Shown: positions 30,739 to 49,992, counted from the whole stretch's first letter. The stretch: 56,922 nucleotides of DNA, filler included, from Actinomycetota bacterium (GCA_013152275.1; 3 parts of 3 records of this genome joined end to end with filler, not necessarily neighbours in it); one strand, 5' to 3'. Made by a program: numbers and translations. The notes: generated by a model from the sequence alone, not told the origin.

Positions 30739-30847
30739 TTCTCGTCAATGCCGGCGTCGCTATCCGACGCTCCCATTGACAGGAAATACAGGGGTTGGTT
30801 TCTCGTCAATGCCGGCGTCGCCATTCGACGCTCCCATTGACAGGAAA
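30739..30847. repeat. Two direct copies of a 48-bp palindromic REP-like unit
   Basis: 30739-30786 and 30800-30847 differ at 2 loop positions; each folds GTCAATG/CATTGAC plus GCGTCG/CGACGC. Confidence 0.9.
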
Positions 30848-30854
30848 CAAACGG

Positions 30855-30880
30855 AGGGCGGGCCCCGAAGAGCCCGCCCT
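30855..30880. terminator. Intrinsic terminator-like hairpin at contig end
   Basis: AGGGCGGGC/GCCCGCCCT stem preceded by an A-rich tract. Confidence 0.65.
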
Positions 30881-30980: not shown

Positions 30981-31000
30981 AGGGGAAGGAAGAAGCGGCG

Positions 31001-31801
31001 CTAGAAGTCGAACGGCGTGTCGGTGAAGAACTCCGATACCGGCTTCTCGGCGGGCTCCTCGACACGGGGCCGGATGCCGAGCCGTTCGCGTAGCACCTCG
31101 TAGCCTCCGGCCTCGAGCTCGTCGGCCAGCTCACGGCCACCGGACTCGACGATCCGCCCGGCCATCAGCACGTGGATCCGGTCCGGTGTCATGTACTCGA
31201 GGATCCGTGAGTAGTGGGTGATCAGCAGCACCGCCATGTCGGGACCGCGCATCTCCTCGACCGCAGCCGCGACTTCGCGCACCGCGTCGATGTCGAGACC
31301 CGAGTCGATCTCGTCGAGGATGGCAACGTGCGGGTGCAGCATCGCCATCTGGAAGATCTCCGAGCGCTTCTTCTCCCCACCCGACAGCCCGACGTTCACC
31401 GGACGGTCGAGAAACTGCGTCACCCCGTACTTCTCGGCGGTCTCCTCGATGATGCCGCTGCTCTCCTCGAAGTTCAGGCCGTGTTCGTCGCCCACCTCGA
31501 GCAGCAGCTCCCGTAGTCGGACACCGGGCACCTCGACCGGATCCTGAAAGGCCTGAAGCAGGCCCAGCTTGGCCCGTTCGTCGACCGGCTTGTCGAGCAG
31601 CTCGACACCGTCGAGTGTCGCCGAGCCCTCGACCTCGTAGCCTTCCTTGCCCGTGAGGACATGACTCAGCGTCGACTTGCCGGAACCGTTCGGTCCCATG
31701 ATCACGTGCAGCTCCCCGTAGGGAACCTCGAGGTCGATACCCTCGAGAATCTGCTTCTCGTCGATCGATGCCCGCACCCCGTCGACCTTCAAGCTGCTCA
31801 C
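31001..31801 (-). CDS. sufC: Fe-S cluster assembly ATPase SufC
   Basis: HVIMGPNGSGKSTL, AFQDPVEVPGV, VNVGLSGGEKKR, LDEIDSGLD, ITHY. Confidence 0.95.
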   Translation of the reverse strand: MSSLKVDGVRASIDEKQILEGIDLEVPYGELHVIMGPNGSGKSTLSHVLTGKEGYEVEGSATLDGVELLDKPVDERAKLGLLQAFQDPVEVPGVRLRELLLEVGDEHGLNFEESSGIIEETAEKYGVTQFLDRPVNVGLSGGEKKRSEIFQMAMLHPHVAILDEIDSGLDIDAVREVAAAVEEMRGPDMAVLLITHYSRILEYMTPDRIHVLMAGRIVESGGRELADELEAGGYEVLRERLGIRPRVEEPAEKPVSEFFTDTPFDF

Positions 31802-32118
31802 GATGTCTCCCCCACTCTCACCAGCACGCTGCCGTCTTCGACCTTCGTCTCGAAGACCGGAACCGGCACCGTCGCCGGGAGCGAGTGCGGAACCCCGGTT
31901 TCGAGACTGAACTCGGAACCGTGGCGGGGACATTCGACGTCGTGGTCGAATACCTCACCCTCGGACAGGGACGCCTGCGCGTGGCTGCACCGGTCACCGA
32001 TGGCATAGACATCGTCACCGATGCGGAACACGGCGATGATGTCGGACCCGATCTCGACGCGCACGCCCTGCCCTTGCGACAGGCCGTCCAATGCGCCGAT
32101 GTTCACCCAGTCCCCCAT
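31798..32118 (-). CDS. Rieske-type ferredoxin
   Basis: CSH...CPRH Rieske ligands; coupled to sufD and sufC. Confidence 0.93.
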   Translation of the reverse strand: MGDWVNIGALDGLSQGQGVRVEIGSDIIAVFRIGDDVYAIGDRCSHAQASLSEGEVFDHDVECPRHGSEFSLETGVPHSLPATVPVPVFETKVEDGSVLVRVGETS

Positions 32119-33395
32119 CACACCCGTCCTTCCTGCTGGGCGGTGACGAACCGCCGGTTGACCGCTACACGTGCCGGCACGGCGAGTTCGGGTTGTGGCA
32201 GCCGTTCGAACGCCTCTTCGAAGAAGCCGCGGATGAGCAGACGCGACGCACGTTCGCGACTCAACCCGCGGCTCATCAGGTAGTAGAGCGGCTCCTCGTC
32301 GAGTGGCCCGACCGTCGAGCCGTGGCCACAGATCACGTCGTCGCACAGGATCTCGAGGTTCGGCACCGAGTTCGCCCGTGCCCCCTCGGACAGCACGAGG
32401 TTGCGGTTCGTCTCGAACGCGCTCGTCTTCGCGGCGTCGTTCTCGATCCTGACCAACCCGGTGAACACCGATTCGGCGGTGTCCTGGACGGCCCCCTTGA
32501 GGAACACATCCGACGAGGTGCTCACGCCGACATGGTGCATGAGCAGGCGATAGTCGAGGATCTGGTGATGCTCACCGTAGAAGGCTCCGACGAGGTCGGT
32601 GTGTGCCCCTTCCCCGGTGAGTTCGAAGTCGAGGTCGAGACGTCCCAACGAGCCGCCGAGGCCGACCTCGCCGAGCTTGGCCGTCGTGTCGCGACCCATG
32701 GCGACCCGCTCGTGGATGATCGATCGCGTCTCGTTGCCGAAGCGCTGGTAGGTGGAGAGTTTCAGGCGTCCTGCGTCGCGGACGAACGCTTCGATCTGCG
32801 GGTTGACGACCATGCGCTCACCGTCGGGTGAGCGGAAGCCGATCACGATCGAGGCCTCTGCGTCGCACTCCACGACGATCGTGATGTGCGGGAATGAGAC
32901 CGCCCCTCCCCGGGTGGCCTGAACGTCGACGTAGAACGGGCGCTCGATGACGCGCCCGGCGGGCACGTACAGGAAGACGCCGTCGCGCACGAACGCGTGG
33001 TGCGCGGCCGAGAAGATGTCGGCGCCGACGTCGACACCGGTGCCGAACACGTCACGCAGCTCGTTCGTCCCGTCATCGGTCCCCGCGACCAGCGAGGTGA
33101 AGATGGCGTCGTCGCAGTGGCCGGCCGTTGCGTACCCGTCGAGGATCATGGCGTGTCCCGCGAGATCACCGAGGGCCGCCGCGACCTCATCCGGTTCGCT
33201 CATCGGGGTCCCCCGCTCGGCCAGGCCGAAATCGGCCAGGGCAAAGTCGAGATCCACGTAGCGCCACGCCTCTTCCTTCGACGTGGGCATCGTCAGCTTC
33301 TCGAACTGCTCGAATCCACGGGATCGGTGCTCTCGAACCCAGTCGGGAGCGGTCGCGTCGAGTCGGTCGACGGTGTCTTGGTCAAGTAGCTGCAT
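32118..33395 (-). CDS. sufD: Fe-S cluster assembly protein SufD
   Basis: EAWRY, FKGA-like FLKGA, NRNLVLS, PNLEI..DDVICGHG, YYLMSRGL, RGFF; AGAGGAG RBS. Confidence 0.9.
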   Translation of the reverse strand: MQLLDQDTVDRLDATAPDWVREHRSRGFEQFEKLTMPTSKEEAWRYVDLDFALADFGLAERGTPMSEPDEVAAALGDLAGHAMILDGYATAGHCDDAIFTSLVAGTDDGTNELRDVFGTGVDVGADIFSAAHHAFVRDGVFLYVPAGRVIERPFYVDVQATRGGAVSFPHITIVVECDAEASIVIGFRSPDGERMVVNPQIEAFVRDAGRLKLSTYQRFGNETRSIIHERVAMGRDTTAKLGEVGLGGSLGRLDLDFELTGEGAHTDLVGAFYGEHHQILDYRLLMHHVGVSTSSDVFLKGAVQDTAESVFTGLVRIENDAAKTSAFETNRNLVLSEGARANSVPNLEILCDDVICGHGSTVGPLDEEPLYYLMSRGLSRERASRLLIRGFFEEAFERLPQPELAVPARVAVNRRFVTAQQEGRV

Positions 33396-33444
33396 CGGCT
33401 CCTCTCGAAGAGACATCCTATTACCACTGCGGAGACAGGTGAAA

Positions 33445-34137
33445 CTACCGGGGCGGATGATCCAGGAGATCCCCGACCCGGGTGAACACGTCGTCGAGCA
33501 TCGCCTCGGTGAGCCGCCCGGTGAACGTGTTCTGCTGACTCGGGTGGTAGCTCGCAACGACGGTAACCCCGGATCCGACATCGACCTGCACGCCGTGGCC
33601 GAATCGGGGCCGAGGCCTGGGGATCGGCGCCCCGCGCCCGGCGTAGATTCGCAGCACCTGGGCGAATGCCATCCCACCGAGAGCGACAACGACCTCGAGG
33701 TGCTCGAGCATGTCGATCTCGGCCTCCAGCCACGGGCGGCAGGCTTCCCGCTCCTCGGCCGTGGGCTTGTTGGCCGGGGGGGCGCAGCGCACGATCGCAC
33801 TCACGAACGCGTCGGTGAGCGAGAGGCCGTCGTGGCGGTCCGTCGACGCCGGCCGGTTGGCGAATCCTGCGCGATGCAGTGCCCGGTACAGCCAATCTCC
33901 CGATCGGTCTCCGGTAAACATGCGGCCCGTTCGATTCGCACCGTGCGCCGCCGGGGCGAGGCCGACGATCAGCAGCCGGGCGCCGGGGTCTCCGAACCCG
34001 GGAACGGGCCTCCCCCAGTACTCCTCGTCACGGAACGCCGCCCGCTTCTCGGCGGCGACCCGTTCACGCCATTCGACGAGCCGAGCACAGCGTCGGCATT
34101 CGGTGATCTCCGCCTCGAGGGTCTCCAGCGCATCCAT
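33445..34137 (-). CDS. udgB: Family 5 uracil-DNA glycosylase (4Fe-4S)
   Basis: [44 protein letters not shown]. Confidence 0.93.
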
Positions 34138-34178
34138 TGCCGGCAAGGGTAGGGGGTGGCTCCGGCTCCGCCACCTCG

Positions 34179-34338
34179 GGAACACCCCCATCGCCTCGAA
34201 GACTCGGCACTTCCCCCTGAGACCGCCGGAACACCCCCATCGACCTCGGCTCGTTCCTCACCTCGGCCACTTCCCCCTGAGGGGGAAGCAAAGAGAAGAA
34301 CGACCCCACTTCTTGCTTCCCCTGGCAGGGGAAGGGGG
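34179..34338. repeat. Cluster of REP-like palindromic units (CACCCCCATCG...CCCCCTGAGGGGGAAG family)
   Basis: Two GGAACACCCCCATCG...CACTTCCCCCTGAG units plus an inverted partial; 23-bp identity with 37906-37928. Confidence 0.8.
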
Positions 34339-34343
34339 CGCCC

Positions 34344-35606
34344 TCATCGATCGTCGGCGGCCAGCAGATGGCTCCGCCCGAACGTCCACGGCCGCTCGGG
34401 GGTGGTAAGGAGGAGCTGATAGACGGATATGCCGGCCATCTCGAAGCCGATGGCCGAACCGGCCATGTAGACGCGCCAGATCCGGTAGGTGGTCTCGTCG
34501 GCCGCCTCCACAGCGGCCTCACGGTTGGCCTCGAGATTGTGGATCCAGTGTCGCAGGGTGAGGGCGTAGGACGTGCGCAGCGACTCGGCGTCGCGAAGCT
34601 CGAACCCGGCACCCTCGGCCTCGGCGATGACGTCGTCCACCGTGACCAGCTCACTGTCCGGGAAGACATAGGTGTCGATGAAGCTGGGCTTGGCCCTGCG
34701 GCGCCGCCGGCGATCTCGGGTCACGATGCCATGGTTCAGCAACGCCCCACCCGGTTTGAGCATGTCCCGGACCCTGGCGAAGTACGTGGCGAGTTGTTTC
34801 TTGCCGACATGCTCGAACATCCCGACCGACGCGATCGCGTCGAATCGTCCCTTGACGTCGCGATAGTCCAGGACCTCGAAGGTGACCCGATCGTCCACAC
34901 CGGCTTCCTTGGCAGCCGCAGTCGCCAGATCGACCTGCGGCCGGGAGAGCGTCACCCCGAGAACGTCGACGCCGTAGTGCCGGGCGGCGTGGATCGCCAG
35001 GGTGCCCCAGCCGCACCCGATGTCGAGCAGGCGCTGCCCGGACCGAAGCTGCAGCTTGCGACAGATCAGGTCGATCTTGCGCCGCTGCGCGGTTTCGAGT
35101 GGCTCGTCGGGATCGAGGAACGCACCCGACGAGTACACCATCCCGGGATCGAGGAACTGGCGGAAGAAGTCGTTGCCGGTGTCGTAATGGGCGGTAACCG
35201 AGGCGTTGTCCCGCCTCTTGGAGTGCAGCCGCCCCTTTCGCTCCGGGCGGGTGTGTGCGCTGCGCCGGTTCTCCGCTGGGAGCCTGCGCAGGTACCGGAG
35301 CAGCCGGAACGAGGCGAGAGGCCGCCGGCGCGCCGACTCGAAGCGGGTCGCGAACCGCAGCACTTCGAGGATGTCGCCTTCGATGTCGATGTCGCCGTAT
35401 ATGTATGCCTCGCCTGCCGTCAGATCGCTGGGTGGCAGCAGCAGGGCACGCAGGGCTCCCGGATGGTTGAGCACGATGGTGGCCGCGGCATCTCTCGGTC
35501 CCCACACGTCCCCGTTCCAGGTCCGTATGGCGACGGTCGGCTCTCCGACCATCGCCGCCAGCCGTTCGTACACCAACCGTGAAGTGGCCAACGCGTCGCC
35601 CATCAT
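34344..35606 (-). CDS. cfa: Cyclopropane-fatty-acyl-phospholipid synthase family methyltransferase
   Basis: GEAYI.G, HYDTGNDFF, MVYSS, LLDIGCGWG, SVGMFEHVG, FIDTYVFP, YALTLRHW, RIWRVYM. Confidence 0.93.
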   Translation of the reverse strand: MMGDALATSRLVYERLAAMVGEPTVAIRTWNGDVWGPRDAAATIVLNHPGALRALLLPPSDLTAGEAYIYGDIDIEGDILEVLRFATRFESARRRPLASFRLLRYLRRLPAENRRSAHTRPERKGRLHSKRRDNASVTAHYDTGNDFFRQFLDPGMVYSSGAFLDPDEPLETAQRRKIDLICRKLQLRSGQRLLDIGCGWGTLAIHAARHYGVDVLGVTLSRPQVDLATAAAKEAGVDDRVTFEVLDYRDVKGRFDAIASVGMFEHVGKKQLATYFARVRDMLKPGGALLNHGIVTRDRRRRRRAKPSFIDTYVFPDSELVTVDDVIAEAEGAGFELRDAESLRTSYALTLRHWIHNLEANREAAVEAADETTYRIWRVYMAGSAIGFEMAGISVYQLLLTTPERPWTFGRSHLLAADDR

Positions 35607-36712
35607 GACTCCTTTCGCCGTCGATCTCGATCGCCGCCACCCCGTCGCACCGGTTCGTCCGGGAGATCCACGGTCGACCGTGCTGCGAGCAGCCCTCTCT
35701 CAACATATCCGAATTCGGGGACGCCGGAGCCTTCTTCTTGCATGTCCCATGGTCCCGAGTCGATCCGCCCGTCGGATTCGACGTCGGCGGAGGGAGCCCC
35801 TGCGAGCCGGCCTGCGGCGCCGATCAGCCCGGCGCACCCGGTCGGGTCGCGCAGCCAGGGGTGATGGTCGACACCGGCCAGCTCGATCAACCGCCGGTGT
35901 GGCCGCCCATCGGCCAGACGCCGGATGGCGTCGATCGGGGCGGTCGTGTCGTCGGTGCCATGAATGAACACGACCGGGAGGTCCTCGGGGAGCGCGTCGA
36001 GATCGAGGGTGATGTCGCGTCGGTACAGGACGTTCCACAGTGAGGTCGTCGACGACATGAAGTTGTGCTCGACGAGGTCGCGGGCCACCTCACGGGGCAC
36101 GTCGCGCAGGAGCAGCGGGAGGATCGGTCCGAGGAGGCGTCGTGTTGCCACGCACACCGCGGCGGTGAGCACCATGTTGGTGAGGAACCAGCCTCTGAGC
36201 CTCCGCCGGCGCCAATGGGCCGCACCCTTGGGCCCTCCATAGGAGGGAAGACTGATGAGCACCAGCGCGGTGACGTCGCCCGGGTGCCTGGCGGCGTAGG
36301 CGAGTGCGAGGGCTGCACCGAGCGAATGGCCCACCAGCACCGACGGCGCCCGGGATGCCAACACCGGCTCCAGCGCCGCGAGGTGGGTCTCGAGTGTGTA
36401 GCGGATGAGGGGGCGGGGCGACCGCCCGAAGCCGAGAAGGTCGACCAGGCTCGAACCCGGCGGGAGATGAGCTTCGCCGCCGGCCGCGGTCCAGTACACC
36501 TGTGTGCCGCCAAGACCGTGGAGGAACACGAACGACCGGGGCCCGCTCGCCTTCCGATCACCGTTGCGCCCGACGGCATGCACGAACAGCTCGGCCGCGT
36601 TGCGGGAGCGCCTGCGTGTGCTCCGCGCCGACTCGGTTCGAGGCAGAGGGGCGAGCGACCCGACGCGGTTGCGTCGCAGGGTCGCCGGTGCGCGACGTCT
36701 GGCATCGATCAT
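35603..36712 (-). CDS. Alpha/beta fold hydrolase
   Basis: FLHGLGG, DLLGFGRS, GHSLG nucleophile elbow, HGTDD, DHHP; start uncertain. Confidence 0.88.
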   Translation of the reverse strand: MIDARRRAPATLRRNRVGSLAPLPRTESARSTRRRSRNAAELFVHAVGRNGDRKASGPRSFVFLHGLGGTQVYWTAAGGEAHLPPGSSLVDLLGFGRSPRPLIRYTLETHLAALEPVLASRAPSVLVGHSLGAALALAYAARHPGDVTALVLISLPSYGGPKGAAHWRRRRLRGWFLTNMVLTAAVCVATRRLLGPILPLLLRDVPREVARDLVEHNFMSSTTSLWNVLYRRDITLDLDALPEDLPVVFIHGTDDTTAPIDAIRRLADGRPHRRLIELAGVDHHPWLRDPTGCAGLIGAAGRLAGAPSADVESDGRIDSGPWDMQEEGSGVPEFGYVERGLLAARSTVDLPDEPVRRGGGDRDRRRKES

Positions 36713-36775
36713 GCCGTCCGGGCCCCCGGCAGATACCCGAGCCGTCTGTCCATCGTCATCGCACGCCGCCTTCTC

Positions 36776-37003
36776 TCAACCCTGGGGGACGTTGGTGTTG
36801 TCGCCGGCATCATCACCCCGGGTCGGGTGACCCCGGACCCGTGGGAATCGGAGTGGACTGTGCTGGAAACACGTGTCATTGCGGTTGTAGGTGCTGAGGC
36901 GTGTCGAGCAGTTCGGCTCGGAACAGATCCTCTCGGCGGAGAATCGCCTCGGGGCTCGACCTCGGGGGCGAACCTTGCTGCCGGTCATGGCCGATTGGCT
37001 CAT
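36776..37003 (-). CDS. Small basic protein with CX4C...CX2H motif
   Basis: 75 aa, RICSEPNCSTRLSTYNRNDTCFQH; CAGGAG RBS; directly behind a MerR-type promoter. Confidence 0.75.
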   Translation of the reverse strand: MSQSAMTGSKVRPRGRAPRRFSAERICSEPNCSTRLSTYNRNDTCFQHSPLRFPRVRGHPTRGDDAGDNTNVPQG

Positions 37004-37046
37004 CGTTCTCAGATCTCCTGCGTGATGTTCTTGTACTTCGAATACC

Positions 37047-37078
37047 ATCGTAAGCCTTCTAGTCGACTGGAATGTCAA
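37047..37078 (-). promoter_or_regulatory. MerR-family-type promoter/operator 4
   Basis: Minus strand TTGACA-ttccagtcgactagaaggct (20 bp)-TACGAT, with dyad in the spacer. Confidence 0.85.
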
Positions 37079-37171
37079 GAGGGTACTGCCAGGCCGCGAA
37101 GCTCATGAACCACACGGCCGGAATCGTGACTCACAGAGCCGTCAGGCTCCGATCGGTCGGCAGAAACGAGT

Positions 37172-37204
37172 GCGGGGCCGGCGGACATGATCCGCCGGCC
37201 CCGC
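37172..37204 (-). terminator. Hairpin downstream of the SPW gene
   Basis: Perfect 14-bp stem GCGGGGCCGGCGGA/TCCGCCGGCCCCGC. Confidence 0.7.
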
Positions 37205-37263
37205 CGTGCCGAGGAGGGAGGGACCCGGCCGTCGATGGGCCGTATGGCCGGGATTCCTCGGCT

Positions 37264-37701
37264 TCAGTGAGAGCCTTGCGCCAGATGATGGTCGTCCATC
37301 TGGTGGCCCTCCATCTGGTGGCCTTCCATCTGATGCGCGTCCATCACACCGGTTTGCTTCCCGGGTGTCGAGGCTTGTGCTGCGATCACCCATGCGGCAA
37401 GGCCGACGACTCCTACAGCCACCAGCCAGGCGTTCCACGCTGCTGCTGCCAGCCCGGTGAATCCGAGCAGCCACGCCGCAACGAACAGCCAGGCTCCGTA
37501 GAGGACCTGGAGCCACCCGGTCCACTTGTCGGCCGGCCTGGTGAGCGCCCACCAGGCGGTCCCGGTTACGAGGACACCCAGCGTCCACGCGTTCCACGAG
37601 GAGCCGGTGTCGGAACTGGTTCCCAACGCCCAGGGAGCGACGAACAGCCAGATGCCGCCGAGGAGCAGGATCCAGTCCTGCCAACGCTTCTTCGAGGTCA
37701 T
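37264..37701 (-). CDS. SPW-repeat membrane protein with His/Met-rich C-terminal tail
   Basis: WQDW..LLGGIWLFVAPWALG, WNAW, GAWLFVAAWLLGF; tail MDAHQMEGHQMEGHQMDDHH; GGAAAGGAGG RBS. Confidence 0.88.
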   Translation of the reverse strand: MTSKKRWQDWILLLGGIWLFVAPWALGTSSDTGSSWNAWTLGVLVTGTAWWALTRPADKWTGWLQVLYGAWLFVAAWLLGFTGLAAAAWNAWLVAVGVVGLAAWVIAAQASTPGKQTGVMDAHQMEGHQMEGHQMDDHHLAQGSH

Positions 37702-37740
37702 GGTGCACCTCCTTTCCTGTTGCACTCGCTGTGCACCACC

Positions 37741-37772
37741 ATCGTAAGCCTTCTAGTCGACTGGAATGTCAA
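37741..37772 (-). promoter_or_regulatory. MerR-family-type promoter/operator 3
   Basis: Identical to 37047-37078: TTGACA-20 bp dyad-TACGAT. Confidence 0.85.
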
Positions 37773-37820
37773 GGGGGTAGAGAGAGGTTTCACAAAGAAA
37801 TATCGAGGCCACCGCCCAAG

Positions 37821-37950
37821 CACCCCCTCAGGCCGTGCCGGGACACCTCCGGCACCCCCTCCGTCGGCTCCCAGAGCCTCGAGGACACCTCCCCTGAGGC
37901 CGTGCCACCCCCATCGCCTCGAAGACTCAGACCCCCTGAGGGGGAAGAAA
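37821..37950. repeat. REP-like palindromic cluster, same family as 34179-34338
   Basis: CACCCCCATCGCCTCGAAGACTC and CCCCCTGAGGGGGAAG shared; internal GGCCGTGCC and GGACACCTCC repeats. Confidence 0.75.
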
Positions 37951-37966
37951 CGACGTGGCTCTGGGC

Positions 37967-40297
37967 TCACCCTGCGGGCGCTTCAGATCGATCGGTGCTC
38001 GGAAGGCGGAGCCCCTTGAGGAGCAGCGCGTTGGTGGCGACGATGAAGCTGGAACCGGACATGGACAGCGCCGCCCACTCGGGTCGCAGGACCCATCCGA
38101 GAGACGGCTCGAGAAGACCGGCGGCGATAGGCAGGGCGATGACGTTGTATCCGATGGCCCAGGCGAGGTTCTGGCGCATCTTGCGGACGGTGCCGCGTCC
38201 GATCCGAACGGCGACGGGGACGTCGAGGGGATCCGAGCGCATGAGAACCAGGTCGGCGGTCTCGATCGCCACGTCGGTGCCGGCACCGATCGCGATCCCG
38301 AGGTCTGCCTTCGCCAGCGCCGGTGCGTCGTTGACGCCGTCCCCGACCATGGCCACCTTCTTGCCCTGTGCCTGCAGTTCGGCGACCTTGTTGGCCTTGT
38401 CTTCGGGAAGGACTTCGGCGATGACCGTGTCGATACCGAGCTGGGAGGCGATCCGGTCTGCGGTCGCCTGGTTGTCGCCGGTCAACATGACCACCTCGAT
38501 GTCGAGCGCGTGCAGGTCACGGACCGCCTGCGCGGACGTCTCTCTGGCGGCGTCGGCGATTCCGATGACCGCCACGGCTGTCCCGTCGACGGCGGCGAGA
38601 ACGGCGGTGCGTCCACCGGCGGCGATCTCGGCTCGCCGCTCGGCCAGGTTGCCCAACTGCACGGCTTCACGCTCCATCAGGCGGCTGTTGCCGACGACGA
38701 CCCTCCGACCCTCGACGGTGGCGATGGCACCGTGCCCGGGGACGTTCTCGAACGCCTCGGCTCTCGCCGGTTCGACACCCCGGCCGTTTGCGTAACGGAC
38801 GACGGCTTCGGCGAGCGGATGCTCGGACTCCTTCTCCACTGCGGCGACGAGACGCAGCACGCCGTCGGGGTCTCCGTCCGTGACGAAGTCGGTGATCTCC
38901 GGTTCGCCCTTGGTGAGCGTGCCGGTCTTGTCCATCACGACGGTGTCGATGCGGGCGGAGGTCTCCAGCGCGGTGGCGTTCTTGAACAGGACGCCGTGGC
39001 CGGCGCCGAGCCCGGTCCCGACCATCACTGCGGTCGGCGTGGCCAGCCCCAGGGCGTCGGGGCAGGTGATCACGACGACGGTGATCGCGAACAGCAGTGC
39101 CGTCGTGAACGCCGCGCCGGCCAGGCTCCAGCCGATCAGCGTGAGCGCGCCGCCGATGAGGGCCACGAATACCAGCCAGAACGCGGCCCGGTCGGCGAGC
39201 CGCTGACCGGGCGCCTTCGAGTTCTGCGCCTCCTGGACGAGCTTGACGATCTGGGCGAGGGCGGTTTCGGATCCGACCCTGGTAGCTCGCACCCGGAGGG
39301 TCCCATTGGTGTTGATGGTGGCTCCGACGACGTCACTCCCCACCTCTTTGTGGACGGGGAGGCTCTCGCCGGTCACCATCGACTCGTCGACGTCGGACTC
39401 GCCATCCTCGACGACGCCGTCGACGGGGATCCGGGCGCCGGGACGCACCAGCAGAAGGTCGCCGACGACGATCTCCGACGTGGGAACCTCGAGTTCCTCA
39501 CCGTCGCGAAGCACTACCGCCATGGCAGGGGCCAGGTTCATCAGCGTTCGGATCGCGTCGTTGGCCCCTCCCCTGGCTCGCATCTCGAACCAGTGGCCCA
39601 GCAGCACGAACACCGCCAGCATCACTGCCGCCTCGTAGAACACCTCGCCGCCGCCGGTGAGAGTGACCACCAGCGAGTAGAGCCATCCGGCGCCGATACC
39701 GACCGACACCAACACCATCATGTCCAGCGTGCGGCGGCGCAGCGCAGCGATGGCGCCTTCGAAGAAGATCCATGCCGACCAGAAGATCACCGGCAGGCTG
39801 AGCAGCAGCTCGAACACGTCGTTGCGCAACCCGAACGGGGTCCCGACGTTGAAGCCGAGCACGTCGCGGCCCAGCGAGGACCACAAGACGATCGGGATGG
39901 AGAAGATCAGCGCCACCAGGAATCGGTTGCGCATGTCCCGGACCATCACATCCATCGACATCTCGCCGTGGCTGCCGTGGCCCATGACTGCGTGCGGGGA
40001 CCGATCCTCGTCGGATTCGGCCTCCGGAGGCTCGACGTAGCAGACGTGTTCGGGGACCGATTCGCCGGCGCAGTGATAGCCGCATTCGATCACCCGCTCT
40101 CGCAGCTCGTCGGCGCCCGTAACCGTCGGGTCGAAGGTCACCGTCGCCGTCTGGGACACCGGGTTGGCGTCCACCGAGAGCACACCGGGCAACCTGGCCA
40201 AGTGGGACTCCACTTTGTTTTTCTCGGAGGCGAACTGCATCCCCCCGACCTGAAGCGTCACCGTCTCGTGACCAGATGAAGTGTGTGTCGTCGTCAT
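37967..40297 (-). CDS. copA: Copper-type P1B heavy-metal ATPase
   Basis: [33 protein letters not shown]7 YN and TM8 MSGSS Cu-type ligands. Confidence 0.9.
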
Positions 40298-41475
40298 GCG
40301 AGTCCCTCCTCGCCGGTCGGTTCCTCGGCCCCCTTGAATCCTACGGCAGCGAACTCCGCGTGGCGGGCCCGTACCGCGGCCATCGCCGGGTGGTCCACAT
40401 CACGGCCGCTCACATGGTCGATCGGCAGGGTGGTCGCAGGGAGAAACGTCGTGGTGATTCCCAGTGCCCGGTCGGTGGCTTCGATCGATGCCGCCGCGTC
40501 GGGCCGCCCGGCGAGGGCACGGATGGCGTCGATATTCTCGGGAATGACGATGGCCTCGTTGTGCACCTGATAGGTGAGATACACCTCGTGGTCGTCGCTT
40601 GCGAGAGCGTCATCCCACACCGCGACCTCCCACATGTCTGCACGGGGACGGTCGAGGTCGCGCATCAGCTCGATCACCGAGTTGAGTGCCACCAGACCGT
40701 CGCCGGATCGGATGAGCGCGATCCGCGGCTCGTCGAAGAGGGCGTCGCGCAGCTCGGCGACCGTCACCCGGCGTGTGGTCTCCACCATCGCGAAGTGGAT
40801 GTGGGACAGGTTGAAGGGGCCGGCGGCGGCCATCGTGGTGAGATCCAGACCCGGAAGCACCTTGCGGGCATCGGGACCCTGGTGGCTCGGCACCCGCATC
40901 TCGGGGATCACCGTGTTGATCATCCCCGTGTCGTGGGACTCCCACGGATCCGTTCCGCGCCGCAGCACGACCACACGGGCTCGCTTCACCCAGCCGTTCC
41001 GATCGAGCGCATGCAGCACCCGGGACATGCCGGTGGTGTTGCACGAAACCACTCGAGTGAGCGAGCGTCCCACCGCGCCTTCGTAGTTGACCTGTGCGAC
41101 GAACGAATAGCCTGCGAGGTCGTGGGATTCGCCGCCCTGCAGGATCGCCTTCACACCCGCCTCCTCGTAGAGGACCCGGTTGACGGCCCCCACTCCCTTG
41201 GGCGTGCAGTCGACGATCACGTCCACCTGGCCCAGCAGGTCGAACAAGGTTCCGACGACGGGGATGCCGCCGGCCTTCATCTCCGGACCACGATCGGGCA
41301 GTGAGGCAAATATCGGATAGCCGCGTTCTGCCGCGACCTTGACGCGATAGCCGAAGCCCACGTCGGCGATCCCGACCAGCTCCATGTCGTCCTGGAGTGC
41401 GACGGCGTCGGCGACCCGCTTGCCGATCACCCCATAGCCGTTCACCCCAACTCGGATACGATCTTCGAATTCCAT
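40294..41475 (-). CDS. gap: Type II (archaeal-type) glyceraldehyde-3-phosphate dehydrogenase
   Basis: [79 protein letters not shown] overlap with copA. Confidence 0.93.
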
Positions 41476-41508
41476 CGTCGGTCTCCTCATACTGTCGTGT
41501 GCCCCACC

Positions 41509-41540
41509 GTTTTACACCTTCCATCCGGATGGAATGTCAA
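41509..41540 (-). promoter_or_regulatory. MerR-family-type promoter/operator 2
   Basis: TTGACA-ttccatccggatggaaggtg (20 bp)-TAAAAC; perfect 16-bp palindrome TTCCATCCGGATGGAA. Confidence 0.85.
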
Positions 41541-41701
41541 GCCATGACTTTCCGGTACCCGGGCAGGATGCGGTTCGTTCCGACTCGCAGACCGACCCCG
41601 GCTTCTCGAGGCTCCGCCCCCCGAGGCCTCCACCCGGGAAACGAGGGCCGTCTACACGCTCGGTCGATACTCCCCGGATCCCGGATCGTCGGCCGGATCC
41701 G

Positions 41702-42847
41702 TCATCGTGGGCTCGGCTCGTTCATCCCGTGGGTGCACCAGACACAGTCACACGTCGTCGTGTGGCAGGCCCGATCCCGGTAGCCGAGACGCGTGCGGGT
41801 GAACCGGGGCAGCGCAGCCCGGGCGAGACGGGATTTGAGCGCGTTCGGCGCCCAGTGACGGTGAAGGCGCCGCCGCAGATCCGAAGATGAGGTGCCCTTT
41901 CTGAGCAGCAGCGAAACGACACCGGCGGGAAGCCGCTCGAACAGCAACCGGTTGAACAAGGCTGCCTCACGGACGCCACGGAAGCGATCCTGGGCCACTT
42001 CGCCATAGCCGAAACCTTCGAGAAGCGAACGGGCGGCGAGGGCACCCGACTCCATGGCATACCACATCCCGAACCCCCACTCGGGGTCTTGGAGGCCCGC
42101 CGCCTCTCCGACGAAGAGGCGGCCCCCCTCGTCGCCGAATCCGCTCGCCCCGAAGACCGCTCCGTACCCGGTGAAGGCCCGAGCATCGTCCAGGTCGAGG
42201 CCCGGCACGAGACCGGTAAACGTCTCGACACTCCGCCGACGGGCCTCCTTCCATCGCTGCTGGTCGCGGAACAGGCAGGTGGCCAGGGTGGCCTGGCCAT
42301 CCCAGACCAGCAGGTACGCATAGCCGGCCGGGGCGAGGTCCTCCGAGACGACACAGTGCGCCTGATCCTCCAGAGTCGTGGAGAACACGTATCCGGTGGC
42401 GATGCCATCGGCGAAACGGGGTCCGATGGCCACGATGTCGCCTCGTCGCGCCCGCTCGGCCGCCTGGCCCAACAGCACCTCGGCGCCCGCATCACGGGCC
42501 TGCTCCAGCAGGGCCCGATCCAGGGAACCGTCATCGGGGCCTCGTTTCACCAGGTAGAAGAGTGGTTCGAGCGAGCGGGTCGGCATCGGCCTCAATGCCC
42601 GGTCATAGAACGTCACTTCGTGGAACGGCCGATACGCGAACGTCGGCTCGATCCCGAGGTGGGCGAGGCGGTCCAGGGCGTCGGTCGGCGACGACCAGTT
42701 CTCCAACCCCTGGAAGTCGCCGGAGAAGCGGTGTCCGACCTCGGACGCCTTCTCGAAGACCCGCACCTGCCGCCCGGCACGGGCCAGCGTGGCCGCTGCG
42801 ACGAGCCCGGCCGGGCCCGCACCGATCACCGTATGGTCGTGTTCCAT
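41702..42847 (-). CDS. FAD-dependent oxidoreductase (geranylgeranyl-reductase-like) with Cys/His C-terminus
   Basis: VIGAGPAG, FEK, APAGYAY, VGEAAGLQDPEWGFGM; ends ACHTTTCDCVWCTH. Confidence 0.85.
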   Translation of the reverse strand: MEHDHTVIGAGPAGLVAAATLARAGRQVRVFEKASEVGHRFSGDFQGLENWSSPTDALDRLAHLGIEPTFAYRPFHEVTFYDRALRPMPTRSLEPLFYLVKRGPDDGSLDRALLEQARDAGAEVLLGQAAERARRGDIVAIGPRFADGIATGYVFSTTLEDQAHCVVSEDLAPAGYAYLLVWDGQATLATCLFRDQQRWKEARRRSVETFTGLVPGLDLDDARAFTGYGAVFGASGFGDEGGRLFVGEAAGLQDPEWGFGMWYAMESGALAARSLLEGFGYGEVAQDRFRGVREAALFNRLLFERLPAGVVSLLLRKGTSSSDLRRRLHRHWAPNALKSRLARAALPRFTRTRLGYRDRACHTTTCDCVWCTHGMNEPSPR

Positions 42848-42926
42848 GGTCTCATGCCCTCCCATGTCCGCCGTGGTCCGACCCGGACCGGACGCGGATC
42901 ACGCGTTGTGTGCTTCTCGGGGATCA

Positions 42927-44297
42927 TCAGCTTGCTCCGACCATCTCGGGCAGGAGCATCCCCGCGGCGGTCATGGCGTCGATGACTCGTCCGATGGCGA
43001 TGGTGAGCGCCTGGATGCGCCATGCTTCGGCGGGGGTCCCGGCGATGAGGTTCCATGTCGTCTCGAGCCGCTGCAGGACCAGGTCCCGCTCGTCGGTTTC
43101 GGGCCAGGACATCCTCTGGTGGTTCTGGACCCATTCGTAGTACGAGGAGATCACGCCTCCCGCGTTGGCGACGATGTCGGGGACGATCGCGACGCCTTTG
43201 TCGACGAGCGTCGCCTCTGCGTCCGGTGTGGTCGGCCCGTTGGCGCCCTCCACCACGAGTCGGGCCGAGAGCCGGGTCGCCACGCCCTGGTCGAGGGTGC
43301 CTTCCATCGCCGCCGGGATGACGATGTCGCACGGTACGGTCAGCACACTCGCCGCGAGCGTCTCCGCTCCGGGGAACTCGACGAGGCGCCTGCCGCGGCC
43401 GATCCACTCGATGAGCCCTTGCAGGTCGAGTCCGTTCTCGGCGTATACGGCGCCGGTCACATCGGCGACCGCGACGATCGTGGCGCCACGGTCGGCCAGC
43501 TCCACGGCGGCCCACCGTCCCACCGAGCCGAACCCCTCCACCGCCACCCGGGCGCCCTCGAGCGTCTCCCCGAGATGACCGTATGCCAGATCGGCGACGT
43601 GCGCCACCCCGACACCGGTGGCTTTCGCGCGAAAGGCGGTTCCGCCAAGGATCACCGGCTTGCCGGTGACGAGGCGGAGGTCGCCCTTGCCTGCTTCCGT
43701 CGCGGCGCGAAGGACCCAACCCATCACCGTAGAGTTCGTCCCGAGGTCGGGTGCGAGCACGTCGGTGTCGGGTCCGATCACCGGCAGCATCCCAACGGTG
43801 TACTGACGCGTGAGACTCCGTAGCTCGCGGGCGGACAGCTTCGCGGGGTCGCAAGGCACCCCACCCTTGGCGCCGCCGAACGGCAGGTCTGCCAGTGCGG
43901 TCTTCCACGTCATCAGGCGGGCCAGGGCGGTCACCTCGGCGGCATCGACGTCGGGGTGGTAGCGGATCCCGCCCTTGGCCGGTCCCAACGCCATCGAATG
44001 CTGAACGCGATAGCCGGTGAACACCTCGAGTGAGCCGTCGTCCCGCTCGAGGGGAATCTCCACCTCGACGCTACGGGCGGCACAGTGCAGCACACACGTC
44101 ACTGCCGCGTTCAGCCCCAGCGCTTCGGTGGCCCGCCGGAATCGTTCCGCCTCCCAATCGAGGAGACCCCCGCCGTGAGCCGTCTGGTGCGGTGCCGTGC
44201 CGTGATCGTGCTGTGAGTTGCGGCACCGCTCACCCTCTGCGCCGCACTCTTCCTCGTCGGGAACGACCTGTGGTTTCGGTTCGGTGGTGGTGGGCAT
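42927..44297 (-). CDS. gdhA: Glu/Leu/Phe/Val dehydrogenase, probably glutamate dehydrogenase
   Basis: GYRVQH, GPAKGGIRY, MTWK, PFGGAKGG, VTGKP, GFGSVG, EGANGP, NAGGV..SYYEWVQN. Confidence 0.9.
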   Translation of the reverse strand: MPTTTEPKPQVVPDEEECGAEGERCRNSQHDHGTAPHQTAHGGGLLDWEAERFRRATEALGLNAAVTCVLHCAARSVEVEIPLERDDGSLEVFTGYRVQHSMALGPAKGGIRYHPDVDAAEVTALARLMTWKTALADLPFGGAKGGVPCDPAKLSARELRSLTRQYTVGMLPVIGPDTDVLAPDLGTNSTVMGWVLRAATEAGKGDLRLVTGKPVILGGTAFRAKATGVGVAHVADLAYGHLGETLEGARVAVEGFGSVGRWAAVELADRGATIVAVADVTGAVYAENGLDLQGLIEWIGRGRRLVEFPGAETLAASVLTVPCDIVIPAAMEGTLDQGVATRLSARLVVEGANGPTTPDAEATLVDKGVAIVPDIVANAGGVISSYYEWVQNHQRMSWPETDERDLVLQRLETTWNLIAGTPAEAWRIQALTIAIGRVIDAMTAAGMLLPEMVGAS

Positions 44298-44468
44298 CGA
44301 GGTCTCCTCTCGAGGATCTCATCGGGGTCGGCCGGGGTGCCGACCGATCTTGCGGCCGATCCAGGACTCCCTTCCAGCGGGCGGATCAGGTCGGGATCGA
44401 GCCACATGGGGTTCGGTTCGATCGTGGCTCCCATGTTCGGGAGCACCGATATCGGCATCTCGTCCAAA

Positions 44469-44500
44469 AGCCTACGCCTTCCATCCGCCTGGAAGGTCAA
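44469..44500 (-). promoter_or_regulatory. MerR-family-type promoter/operator 1
   Basis: TTGACC-ttccaggcggatggaaggcg (20 bp)-TAGGCT; dyad CCTTCCA-N6-TGGAAGG. Confidence 0.85.
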
Positions 44501-44596
44501 GGGGTATGTGGCGATTTGCCGAGTGATGCCGGTTTGTGCCACGCACTTCGTACTTCGCATCACGACGTCGGGTCGATGCACCCATGCGTCTATTGG

Positions 44597-44690
44597 TCCC
44601 CCCAAGGGAGCGAAGCGACCGCAGGGGGGAAAGTACCGCAGCGGCTTTGCGCTGGGGTAGGGGGGTCTTCGTCGGGGAGCGAAGCGACCG
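44597..44690. repeat. REP-like repeat at contig end
   Basis: GGGAGCGAAGCGACCG occurs twice within C/G-run palindromic sequence; contig breaks here. Confidence 0.65.
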
Positions 44691-48900: not shown

Positions 48901-49278
48901 GTGAGCGCCCATGACCGTCGCTCGGTGCGGACGCGCCGTCAACTGGCCGTGTTCATCGGGGGAGGTTTCGGTGCGGGGGCGAGGGCCGCCATCGCCTCAC
49001 TTGTCTCGGGCACGCTTTGGGCAACCTTCGGCGTCAACATCGTTGGGGCGTACGCGTTGGGATACCTTCTCCCGAGACTGCGACTTGCCGGCCGTTCGAG
49101 GATGATCAGCCTCCCACTTCTCGGCGTCGGCTTTCTCGGTGCCTTCACAACGTTCTCGACGTTCGCAGTGCAGCTGTGGCACATGCCCCTCCTCCTGTCG
49201 GTTACCTACGCTGCCGCGACGGTTGCGTCCGGGGTGGTTGCAGGGGCGGTCGGGCTGCGCCAGGGGAGGGGACGATGA
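48901..49278 (+). CDS. crcB: Fluoride channel Fluc/CrcB, subunit 1
   Basis: GGGFGAGAR, ATFGVNIVG, GFLGAFTTFSTF. Confidence 0.9.
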   Translation: MSAHDRRSVRTRRQLAVFIGGGFGAGARAAIASLVSGTLWATFGVNIVGAYALGYLLPRLRLAGRSRMISLPLLGVGFLGAFTTFSTFAVQLWHMPLLLSVTYAAATVASGVVAGAVGLRQGRGR

Positions 49279-49640
49279 TCTGGATCGCGATCGTACTGGC
49301 GGGAGGGTTCGGGGCTCTCGCACGGTATGAAATGATCGGGTTTGTTCAGCGGCGCGTACGTGATCCTCGGCCATGGGGGACATTCGTGGTCAACGTGAGC
49401 GGTGCCGCACTGCTCGGTTTTGTCGTTGGATCCGCTCCCGGCACCTGGTGGGCTCTGCCTGTGACGGCCGGCTTCCTCGGTGGGTACACGACGTTCTCGA
49501 CATGGATGGTCGAGACGATCTACCTTGCTGAGAGCGGAGGCACTGCGGGGATCCGTTCAGGGATCTGGAATCTGGCTGGAACACTCGTGATCGGGGCCGG
49601 TGTGGCCGGCATCGGATTACTGGTGGGAATGATGATGTGA
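49275..49640 (+). CDS. crcB: Fluoride channel Fluc/CrcB, subunit 2
   Basis: GGFGALARY, PWGTFVVNVSG, GFLGGYTTFST; ATGA overlap. Confidence 0.92.
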   Translation: MIWIAIVLAGGFGALARYEMIGFVQRRVRDPRPWGTFVVNVSGAALLGFVVGSAPGTWWALPVTAGFLGGYTTFSTWMVETIYLAESGGTAGIRSGIWNLAGTLVIGAGVAGIGLLVGMMM

Positions 49641-49653
49641 GGAGGAGAGGCAG

Positions 49654-49992
49654 ATGGAGAACATCGAAGACGGCAGCCTGCTGAGGATATTCATCGGTGA
49701 ATCCGATGAGTATGAGGGGAGACCGCTCTACGAGGCGATCGTGCTCATGCTTCGTCGCGAGGGGCTCGCCGGTGCGACCGTGTTTCGGGGGATCGAAGGG
49801 TTTGGTGCATCTTCGACGATTCACACCGCCAGGGTGTTGCGACTTTCGGAGGATCTTCCCATCGTGATCGAGTGTGTCGATCGCCGACCGGTCATAACGC
49901 GTGTCCTGCCGATCCTCGATGAGATGGTGACCGAAGGCCTCGTGACCGTGGAGAAGGCGGACGTGCGAATCTACCGGGGAAGGGAGGAGTAA
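49654..49992 (+). CDS. DUF190 (PII-like) protein
   Basis: LRIFIGESD, GLAGATVFRGIEGFG, LSEDLPIVIE; typical crcB partner. Confidence 0.92.
   Translation: MENIEDGSLLRIFIGESDEYEGRPLYEAIVLMLRREGLAGATVFRGIEGFGASSTIHTARVLRLSEDLPIVIECVDRRPVITRVLPILDEMVTEGLVTVEKADVRIYRGREE

Follow-up and report, generated by a model that had tools for sequence, protein, structure and literature searches.

Metal-responsive regulators of the MerR family act on promoters with an over-long spacer: the dimer remains on a dyad lying between the -35 element and the -10 element, and metal binding underwinds the spacer, aligning the two. Escherichia coli CueR and rhizobial HmrR, Cu(I) activators of copA and cueO, have a 21-bp site in a 19-bp spacer, Ser77 and a seven-residue loop. 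ZntR, CadR, PbrR and MerR have a Cys77-type third ligand and target Zn, Cd or Pb pumps or mer genes; the ZntR site is 22 bp long with a GTCGAC centre and lies in a 20-bp spacer (PMC1526738). For actinobacteria, a 22-bp motif, AC(C/A)TTCC...GGAAGGT, over a long-spacer promoter has been published for the MerR-family HMRTR group, with sites in Mycobacterium tuberculosis H37Rv and Arthrobacter (PMC5045206). Its rows give one site per regulator and no metal, sites having been retained only if adjoining a regulator or metal gene. The MerR protein Rv3334 of M. tuberculosis binds a palindrome, also 22 bp long, that belongs to this class of motif.

Here we describe a gene cluster of an actinobacterium (Actinomycetota bacterium, GCA_013152275.1), at positions 34,344 to 44,500 of a stretch of 56,922 nucleotides (the window), together with its four minus-strand promoter-operators. 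An initial annotation had read these as MerR-type promoters of a copper regulon of efflux, bypass enzymes and membrane remodelling. Judging from comparison of genome sequences, they belong to a genuine MerR regulon that relatives conserve and that probably has copper as its leading signal. Its promoters are of a known class, but the signature of its sensor is unusual and its range of genes uncommonly wide.

Results

Eleven promoter-operators of one type

The four promoter-operators were found at the annotated positions, each with TTGAC(A/C), a spacer of exactly 20 bp and TAnnn(T/C):

44469..44500, minus strand: promoter-operator P1, TTGACC, 20 bp, TAGGCT; 22-bp dyad at 44476-44497; 171 nt before gdh
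41509..41540, minus strand: promoter-operator P2, TTGACA, 20 bp, TAAAAC; 33 nt before gapII
37741..37772, minus strand: promoter-operator P3, TTGACA, 20 bp, TACGAT; 39 nt upstream of the SPW gene
37047..37078, minus strand: promoter-operator P4, same sequence as P3; 43 nt upstream of the small Cys3His gene

P3 and P4 are the same over 32 bp and identical at 41 of 42 bp when extended, so that the four boxes of the window provide only three different sequences. The 22-bp dyad begins at the fourth base of the -35 element and fills the spacer, with 8, 10, 8 and 8 of 11 positions paired in the four sites. Each site lies 33-171 nt upstream of a start codon with a ribosome-binding site, none being leaderless. 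Standard sigma-70 promoters with a 16-18-bp spacer were absent from window 33900-44690.

A matrix from the three distinct sequences detected 11 sites in the 3.07-Mb genome (100 contigs, marker completeness 100%). They scored 27.8-40.3 bits, compared with 20.1 bits for the top unrelated match and 18.3-20.1 in three shuffled genomes. A second matrix, trained on 105 sites in relatives that are not of the genus, recovered the same 11 sites at 34.8-49.1; the next score (15.7) was the reverse read of one of the 11, and five shuffles gave 6.2-14.0. The sites are spread over four contigs, and all have the 20-bp spacer, within the 19-20 bp of MerR-activated promoters. The box pattern occurred in 16 of 41 relatives (reversed control: 0) and in 47 of 301 genomes of the class (control: 5), this genome being included in both counts. 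Of 119 distinct related sites, 118 retained TTGAC; the -10 element had its T in 114 of them, its A in 116 and its last T in 91. An ATG followed the -10 element at +6 in 19 of the 119 sites and at +7 in 6, the mean at 28 other offsets being 2.2. Since actinobacteria often use leaderless messages, this excess indirectly supports the -10 assignment. These data, along with a candidate regulator encoded at a box and the same genes boxed in other families (see below), strongly support the annotated idea of one MerR-controlled regulon, the existence of which we regard as very probable.

The half-site had been likened to the CueR box with one extra base. The MerR-type character of the box stood, its identity as a CueR box did not: the boxes of the window carry the published 22-bp HMRTR motif and, compared by eye, match the seven HMRTR training sites, which include acattccagtgcgatggaaggt (PMC5045206, supplement 1). 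The two systems share the 22-bp dyad over a long-spacer promoter and differ in extent, the published rows having one site per regulator and this genome eleven sites on four contigs. With CueR and HmrR, the present system shares ACCTTCC-like half-sites, copper pumps as core targets and, by inference, underwinding. Membership in their group was rejected, because the box here spans 22 bp in a 20-bp spacer and the candidate regulator has Cys77; its loop has five residues, and the present regulon is much larger than theirs. Site length and spacer are those of ZntR. A search of freely available literature, bioRxiv supplements excepted, on type II glyceraldehyde-3-phosphate dehydrogenase (GAPDH), glutamate dehydrogenase (GDH) with glutamate synthase (GOGAT), HMRTR, actinobacterial MerR sites with a 20-bp spacer and complex-I-like genes, each in connection with copper, found no description of this regulon.

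The nearest studied protein with this type of box, Rv3334, weighs against activation, as it is an autorepressor released by Cu or Co at high concentration (PMC6177252); elsewhere it is listed as the kstR regulator with unknown inducer (PMC9909328), and its likeness to the present system was judged by motif. If the regulator here were chiefly a metal-released repressor of that kind, the dyad that precedes merR without a TTGAC -35 element in one family of relatives (f4) would fit as well. However, the 20-bp spacer with strong -35 and -10 elements is retained in about 119 sites, and such promoters are near-silent unless activated (PMC9909328), which makes repression as the chief mode very unlikely.

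A three-cysteine MerR protein is the likely reader of the boxes

As annotated, the window itself contains no MerR gene. A search of the genome yielded a candidate on contig C64 (187920-188387), divergent from one of the 20-bp boxes and with a further dyad just upstream of its own start. The 155-aa product has Pfam MerR domains, Cys77, Cys120, Cys126 and a His tail, and its homologues at 40-49% identity are named 'heavy metal-responsive transcriptional regulator' in RefSeq. Close homologues were found in 69 of 151 genomes of the order (E 1e-20 or better); of 301 genomes from the phylum, 18 had one at 1e-30. One unpublished genome (G034) enters only the tallies over 41 relatives and over these 151 genomes, and none of the claims depends on it. 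From its position and cysteines, the C64 protein is likely to be the reader of the boxes.

Seven MerR-domain matches are present in the genome, and only two, on C64 and C92, have three cysteines; the five others were rejected as readers for lacking them. The C92 protein was rejected because it is accompanied by a 19-bp box of its own, no second site of that kind having been found, and because its recognition helix and loop differ. The three-cysteine MerR gene (C-x-C loop) and the 19-bp-spacer box of that locus (C92 27475-30707) precede a P1B pump whose helix 6 carries YPC, and 7 kb away is a merA gene under an ArsR-like gene.

In an alignment of 89 regulators, a C-x4-[RKG]-C-Q loop was shared by 62, which formed one side of a branch (FastTree support 93; midpoint root). 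In a second tree, the loop clade comprised 38 of 47 rows with IQ-TREE support of 99/95 (midpoint root).

Genes behind the boxes point to copper as the probable signal

We fetched 80 loci around boxes, in which 41 P1B pumps lay within 1.3 kb behind a box, four of them cut off. All 37 complete pumps behind boxes were of copper type, combining YN with CPH (18), CPC (15) or CPD (4), and the single APC pump in these loci was not behind a box. To guard against circularity, 40 further loci were picked by hand from protein matches outside those 80 loci (the 21 strongest and 19 weaker ones). Among these, 23 had the clade loop: 20 of the 23 contained a copper-type pump and none merA or merB, the loci being kin rather than independent and the tallies counts rather than a statistical test. 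Of the remaining three, two contain a module of nuo genes. The targets of the clade are copper-type pumps, unlike those of ZntR, CadR, PbrR and MerR, with which the C64 protein has the Cys77-type ligand in common. Family f4 has the small Cys3His gene ahead of merR, after which comes copA, with or without copZ in between; in the present genome (C64 31900-34902), csoR and copA come after a paralogue of that small gene. This suggests that csoR and merR fill the same slot, with displacement of one regulator by the other.

Several observations weigh against copper. Cys77, described as the signature of divalent sensors (PMC9909328, PMC11672702), was present in all 89 aligned regulators, mercury-linked ones included. 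In the C64 protein it aligned with the CadR cysteine, CueR having Ser77 there. The top PDB matches of the C64 protein were 4ua1, 5gpe and CadR, ahead of CueR; 4ua1 is a Cys-type 'Regulatory protein' named MerR-Bm (PMC9733647). Among the 17 hand-picked loci with other loops, 12 contain merA- or merB-like genes, some of the merA matches being weak (28-33%); a thioredoxin-like gene occurs with a CPH pump in 4 of the 17 and alone in 1. In three of these loci, which come from other classes (L253-L255), a similar box heads mer genes, so that the box alone does not name the metal. Moreover, the genome already has csoR-copA.

The universal Cys77 and the similar boxes of mer genes would suit a three-cysteine sensor of soft metals in general (Cu, Ag, Hg, Cd, Zn), or of mainly divalent ones, and a programme of general thiol-metal stress response. 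The His tail resembles that of CadR. CadR has a second, remote metal site (PMC9909328), and CueR and GolS engineered to carry Cys77 lack specificity (PMC9733647). Against a broad or divalent sensor, neither Zn/Cd-type pumps nor merA/merB stand behind a box in the clade, and MerA and the APC-type pump of this genome follow ArsR-like genes without a box. The loop has five residues versus seven in CueR, a short loop being said to favour monovalent ions (PMC11672702). The engineered Cys77 CueR still responds to +1 ions while gaining +2 ions (PMC9733647); Cys77 is therefore compatible with copper but permits cross-talk. We consider a broad or divalent sensor unlikely, and copper the likely main signal. 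Copper had been proposed from the resemblance to the CueR box; the metal is supported by the comparative evidence, and that argument falls with the HMRTR identity of the box, the mercury-linked sisters and Cys77 in place of Ser77.

Composition of the cluster

Behind P1 to P4, the following features were identified:

42927..44297, minus strand: Glu/Leu/Phe/Val dehydrogenase (GDH-like, gdh), 456 aa; Pfam PF00208 and PF02812; PDB GDHs at E 1e-100
41702..42847, minus strand: flavin adenine dinucleotide (FAD) oxidoreductase of geranylgeranyl-reductase fold, about 381 aa; C-terminal Cys4 motif
40294..41475, minus strand: type II (archaeal-type) GAPDH (gapII), 393 aa; NF003251 at 451 bits, cut-off 185
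37967..40297, minus strand: P1B ATPase of the CPD / YN(X)4P / MSGSS subtype (P1B-3a), 776 aa; TIGR01511 at 600 bits, cut-off 397
37264..37701, minus strand: SPW-repeat membrane protein, 145 aa, His/Met tail; PF03779
37172..37204, minus strand: 15-bp hairpin, terminator-like, between the SPW gene and P4
36776..37003, minus strand: small C-x4-C...C-x2-H (Cys3His) protein, 75 aa; a paralogue precedes csoR-copA on C64
35603..36712, minus strand: alpha/beta hydrolase, PF12697; true start uncertain, possibly downstream
34344..35606, minus strand: cyclopropane-fatty-acid-synthase-family methyltransferase (cfa), 420 aa; PF02353 at 304 bits

The annotated gene names held, with corrections to the pump motif, its HMA domain and the cfa and GDH assignments. 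The sixth helix of the pump carries CPD instead of CPC, CxxC is missing from its HMA domain, and its start overlaps the gapII stop. CPD, YN(X)4P and MSGSS are those of the P1B-3a ATPases, a class defined by phylogeny from three rhizobial sequences with copper as putative substrate (PMC5552934); motifs and neighbours suggest that this pump, too, would transport copper. The GDH, third in the genome beside paralogues on C69 and C90, has both GDH domains and the substrate-site lysine motifs, scoring below every NCBIfam equivalog cut-off. The cfa product is likewise a family member, under the equivalog cut-offs (334 versus 650 and 259 versus 400), and has a 60% identical paralogue on C71. For gapII, a second equivalog score was 343 versus 233 bits, the catalytic SCNTT is kept in alignment to 1cf2, and we take the Asp at the relevant position to be that of NAD-preferring enzymes. 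The genome has three GAPDH genes: gapII of the cluster, a second type II gene at C22 4015-5022 (37% identical, without box or tail) and GAPDH-I on C69.

The FAD reductase gave no PDB match by single-sequence search, and profile and fold searches reached the superfamily only: its model (predicted local distance difference test, pLDDT, 90) had 3oz2 as top fold match (E 3e-20, 16% identity). At a guess, the substrate may be a lipid or a quinone. For the small Cys3His protein, no Pfam or NCBIfam match was obtained, and the Atlas gave only unnamed actinobacterial clusters.

Of the Cys/His/Met-rich terminal extensions annotated, those of the GDH, FAD reductase and pump were borne out, while those of the SPW protein and GAPDH were weak. 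The N-terminal Cys/His motif of the GDH was present in 4 of 4 homologues shown, and the Cys4 motif of the FAD reductase is family-wide, being carried by 112 of 120 homologues. The His/Met repeats of the SPW protein were found only within the genus (tails of 4 homologues), and the conserved part of the GAPDH extension (about 45 residues) is GFKGxEEP. The hairpin is weak as evidence, because 5 terminator-like hairpins were found across the region versus 3.3 in shuffles.

The cluster lies on contig C93 (window 30981-44690), and the window is three contigs joined by runs of N; sequence beyond 44690 is not a neighbour of the cluster, since C93 ends there. The nearest named homologues of C93 proteins were from Acidimicrobiia metagenome-assembled genomes. 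Dispersed repeats with many genomic copies, often at contig ends, lie at window 34150-34320, 30739-30880 and 44584-44690; they flank the cluster and probably broke the assembly there. Just downstream of cfa, on the same strand, window 31001-34191 holds a sufC-like ATPase gene, a Rieske-type ferredoxin, a sufD-like gene and a uracil-DNA glycosylase; that an iron-sulphur (Fe-S) assembly locus adjoins a copper island may be chance. On another contig, at 48901-49992, are two putative crcB/fluc-like genes and a putative DUF190-like gene, judged by their translations.

Other units of the regulon

The box on C31 heads a YHS-HMA CopA with CPC, a cupredoxin and signal peptidase II. In a congener (G002), this CopA unit is directly upstream of gdh, and C31 and C93 may therefore adjoin. 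Further boxes on C64 head an ABC ATPase together with its double permease, another FAD reductase paralogous to that of the cluster, and a Rieske protein that has a 76% paralogue elsewhere in the genome. The C64 box divergent from merR (188495-190127) precedes a short open reading frame (ORF), a BlaI/CopY-type repressor and an M48 peptidase. The short ORF has 20 codons with a His and two Cys; boxes in G001 and G002 also precede it, there in a frame that overlaps. The box on C12 (16242-20095, L010) heads a membrane protein, rnfC, rnfD and apbE, no other rnf gene being seen in the unit; an Rnf-like unit stands behind a box in this genome, G002, G199 and G234.

Another C64 box (175693-184156, L008) heads a YHS protein followed by nuoA, a fused nuoB/D, nuoH, J, K, L, M and N. 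These are the only nuo genes of the operon, which lacks the NuoC, I, E, F and G of respiratory complex I. The fused NuoB/D lacks all four Cys ligands of cluster N2, present in both housekeeping NuoB proteins, and no conserved Cys was seen in 120 of 980 homologues examined. It keeps the NuoD fold (model pLDDT 91). The fusion has an invariant GVGPYGxGGxGMTGGxPxGRP loop, and the channel Glu and Lys residues of the module appear kept in alignments to housekeeping subunits. Of 15 plasmids with the nuoB/D gene, 6 were viewed: it lay among copper genes in all six and was fused to heavy-metal-binding domains on three. In Marinobacter atlanticus, a cassette of nuoA, D, H, J, K and L-like genes among copper genes, as here, is reported to be expressed with them; the published text gives that cassette no nuoMN or mapped regulator (PMC8233155), whereas nuoM and N are included here, behind the same box as the pumps.

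With such respiratory modules and an uncharacterised CPD pump, the genes could form a low-oxygen or copper-supply programme (respiratory remodelling, cuproprotein loading) rather than one of detoxification. However, consensus patterns for Rex, CRP, DosR and CsoR-like boxes matched nowhere in 34344-44690, and the one FNR-like match there was inside the pump gene; FNR-like boxes preceded only 2 of 79 gapII homologues. MerR activators usually respond to metal excess. We regard such a programme as very unlikely, and as the least probable of the alternatives weighed here.

Recurrence of the accessory genes

The co-occurrence of the cluster genes could be followed in other genomes, families and gene orders, where they recur behind boxes. 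In the 51 genomes with boxes, box-led gene chains contained a non-CPD pump in 32, a cupredoxin in 10, the small Cys3His gene in 8, the ABC pair in 8, the CPD pump in 5, the SPW gene in 4, the nuo module and the hydrolase in 3 each and the rnf unit in 2, all tallies being lower bounds owing to short contigs and a strict chain rule. In other genomes, a box stands before the gdh unit (4 genomes) and immediately before gapII (3), and the first gene behind a box is the SPW gene in 4 and cfa in 2.

Among 177 gapII loci from many phyla, the best 80 were surveyed. A P-type ATPase match was present in 34 of them, and 33 of the 35 P1B pumps near these gapII homologues were copper-type. All four of the 37 gapII plasmids that were viewed had metal pumps and copper genes in the stretch; the linkage of gapII with copper genes was tight in Corynebacterium marinum and loose in a Rhodococcus plasmid. 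On two of the four, cfa was near gapII. Flanking cfa-gapII and the nuo module of Sulfitobacter are sigma factors whose tails are rich in cysteine and which by eye resemble the copper-dependent CorE (PMC3107203). At L188 (NZ_CP136699.1, 18857-36587), three extracytoplasmic function (ECF) sigma factors with such tails lie around a nuo module, a CPD pump, arc genes and cfa-gapII.

Back-up enzymes or cargo

The genome has housekeeping counterparts of the boxed enzymes: GAPDH-I, a second gapII, two GDHs, GOGAT, cfa and two nuo clusters. Copper inhibits GAPDH in Staphylococcus aureus cells (PMC6350627). GOGAT, too, is reported to be poisoned by copper. The cluster enzymes might act as back-ups for poisoned steps, a view we hold at somewhat less than even chance.

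Some findings count against it. The enzymes are patchy in the 51 genomes (gdh 4, FAD reductase 4, gapII 3, cfa 2); island gapII was present in just 3 of 41 relatives, behind a box in all three, and this box occurred at only 2 of the best 80 gapII loci. The product of gapII retains its catalytic Cys and His in the alignment to 1cf2, so that copper resistance is not evident. Fe-S proteins are also part of the regulon: RnfC retains eight Fe-S cysteines, and the motif of the Rieske protein is kept. Such findings fit the alternative of a copper-led regulon in which gdh, gapII, cfa and the genes for the hydrolase and the reductase arrived as island cargo under copied boxes (P3 and P4 being duplicates) and serve energy, redox or envelope needs, or little, instead of replacing poisoned enzymes. 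On plasmids, gapII also stands alongside phosphoketolase, aldolase, arginine deiminase and acetate kinase genes. Mere cargo is, on the other hand, less easily reconciled with the same genes coming first behind a box in differing families and gene orders, with gapII following copper pumps under other regulators too, or with P3 and P4 being unchanged in G002, whereas the SPW protein is 83% identical. We rate the cargo explanation as possible though doubtful. By the tallies, the pump forms the conserved core, with the enzymes as accessory cargo that a minority of relatives carry. For back-up enzymes, a larger amount of enzyme, or protection by Cys/His tails, could serve as well as true copper resistance.

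Discussion

The reading we favour as a whole, namely an eleven-site regulon read by the C64 MerR protein, responding to copper and combining pumps with second enzyme copies, appears to us reasonably likely. In the mechanism proposed, the three-cysteine protein would sit on the 22-bp dyads and activate by underwinding the spacer upon metal binding, with Cu(I) held trigonally by three thiolates and Ag(I) or others as possible cross-inducers. Its output would have three layers. Export would rely on the CPC-type CopA with cupredoxin (C31), the CPD pump and perhaps the ABC pair. A second layer would supply extra enzyme capacity at copper-poisoned steps (GAPDH, and GDH beside the Fe-S enzyme GOGAT). 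The third would concern envelope and respiration, with cfa, the geranylgeranyl-reductase-like reductase, the SPW protein, RnfCD-ApbE, the Rieske protein and the complex-I-like module without Fe-S ligands; that the regulon alters lipids is plausible.

A bolder and rather doubtful extension is that a natural three-cysteine MerR clade serves as the copper sensor of many Acidimicrobiia, breaking the rule that ties Ser77 to monovalent ions, and in the present lineage runs a hard-wired 'copper-proof metabolism'. This would consist of pumps, a copper-tolerant gapII, a GDH replacing the Fe-S enzyme GOGAT, and an Fe-S-free, complex-I-derived membrane machine, headed by a metal-binding YHS protein, that handles copper or keeps an ion gradient while the main respiratory chain is poisoned.

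For metal selectivity in the MerR family, the system is of interest because two predictions diverge: a divalent sensor by the Ser77/Cys77 rule, copper by the neighbouring genes. The clade regulators and their mercury-linked sisters, with the same three cysteines and another loop, form a natural pair for loop-swap tests and biosensor design. The boxes also offer a regulatory handle on unstudied copper-island genes, i.e. those for the CPD pump, the SPW protein, the small Cys3His protein, the geranylgeranyl-reductase-like enzyme and the Fe-S-free complex I relative. GAPDH and Fe-S enzymes are known or proposed copper targets, and a copper regulon carrying its own second enzyme copies would show which steps cells actually protect.

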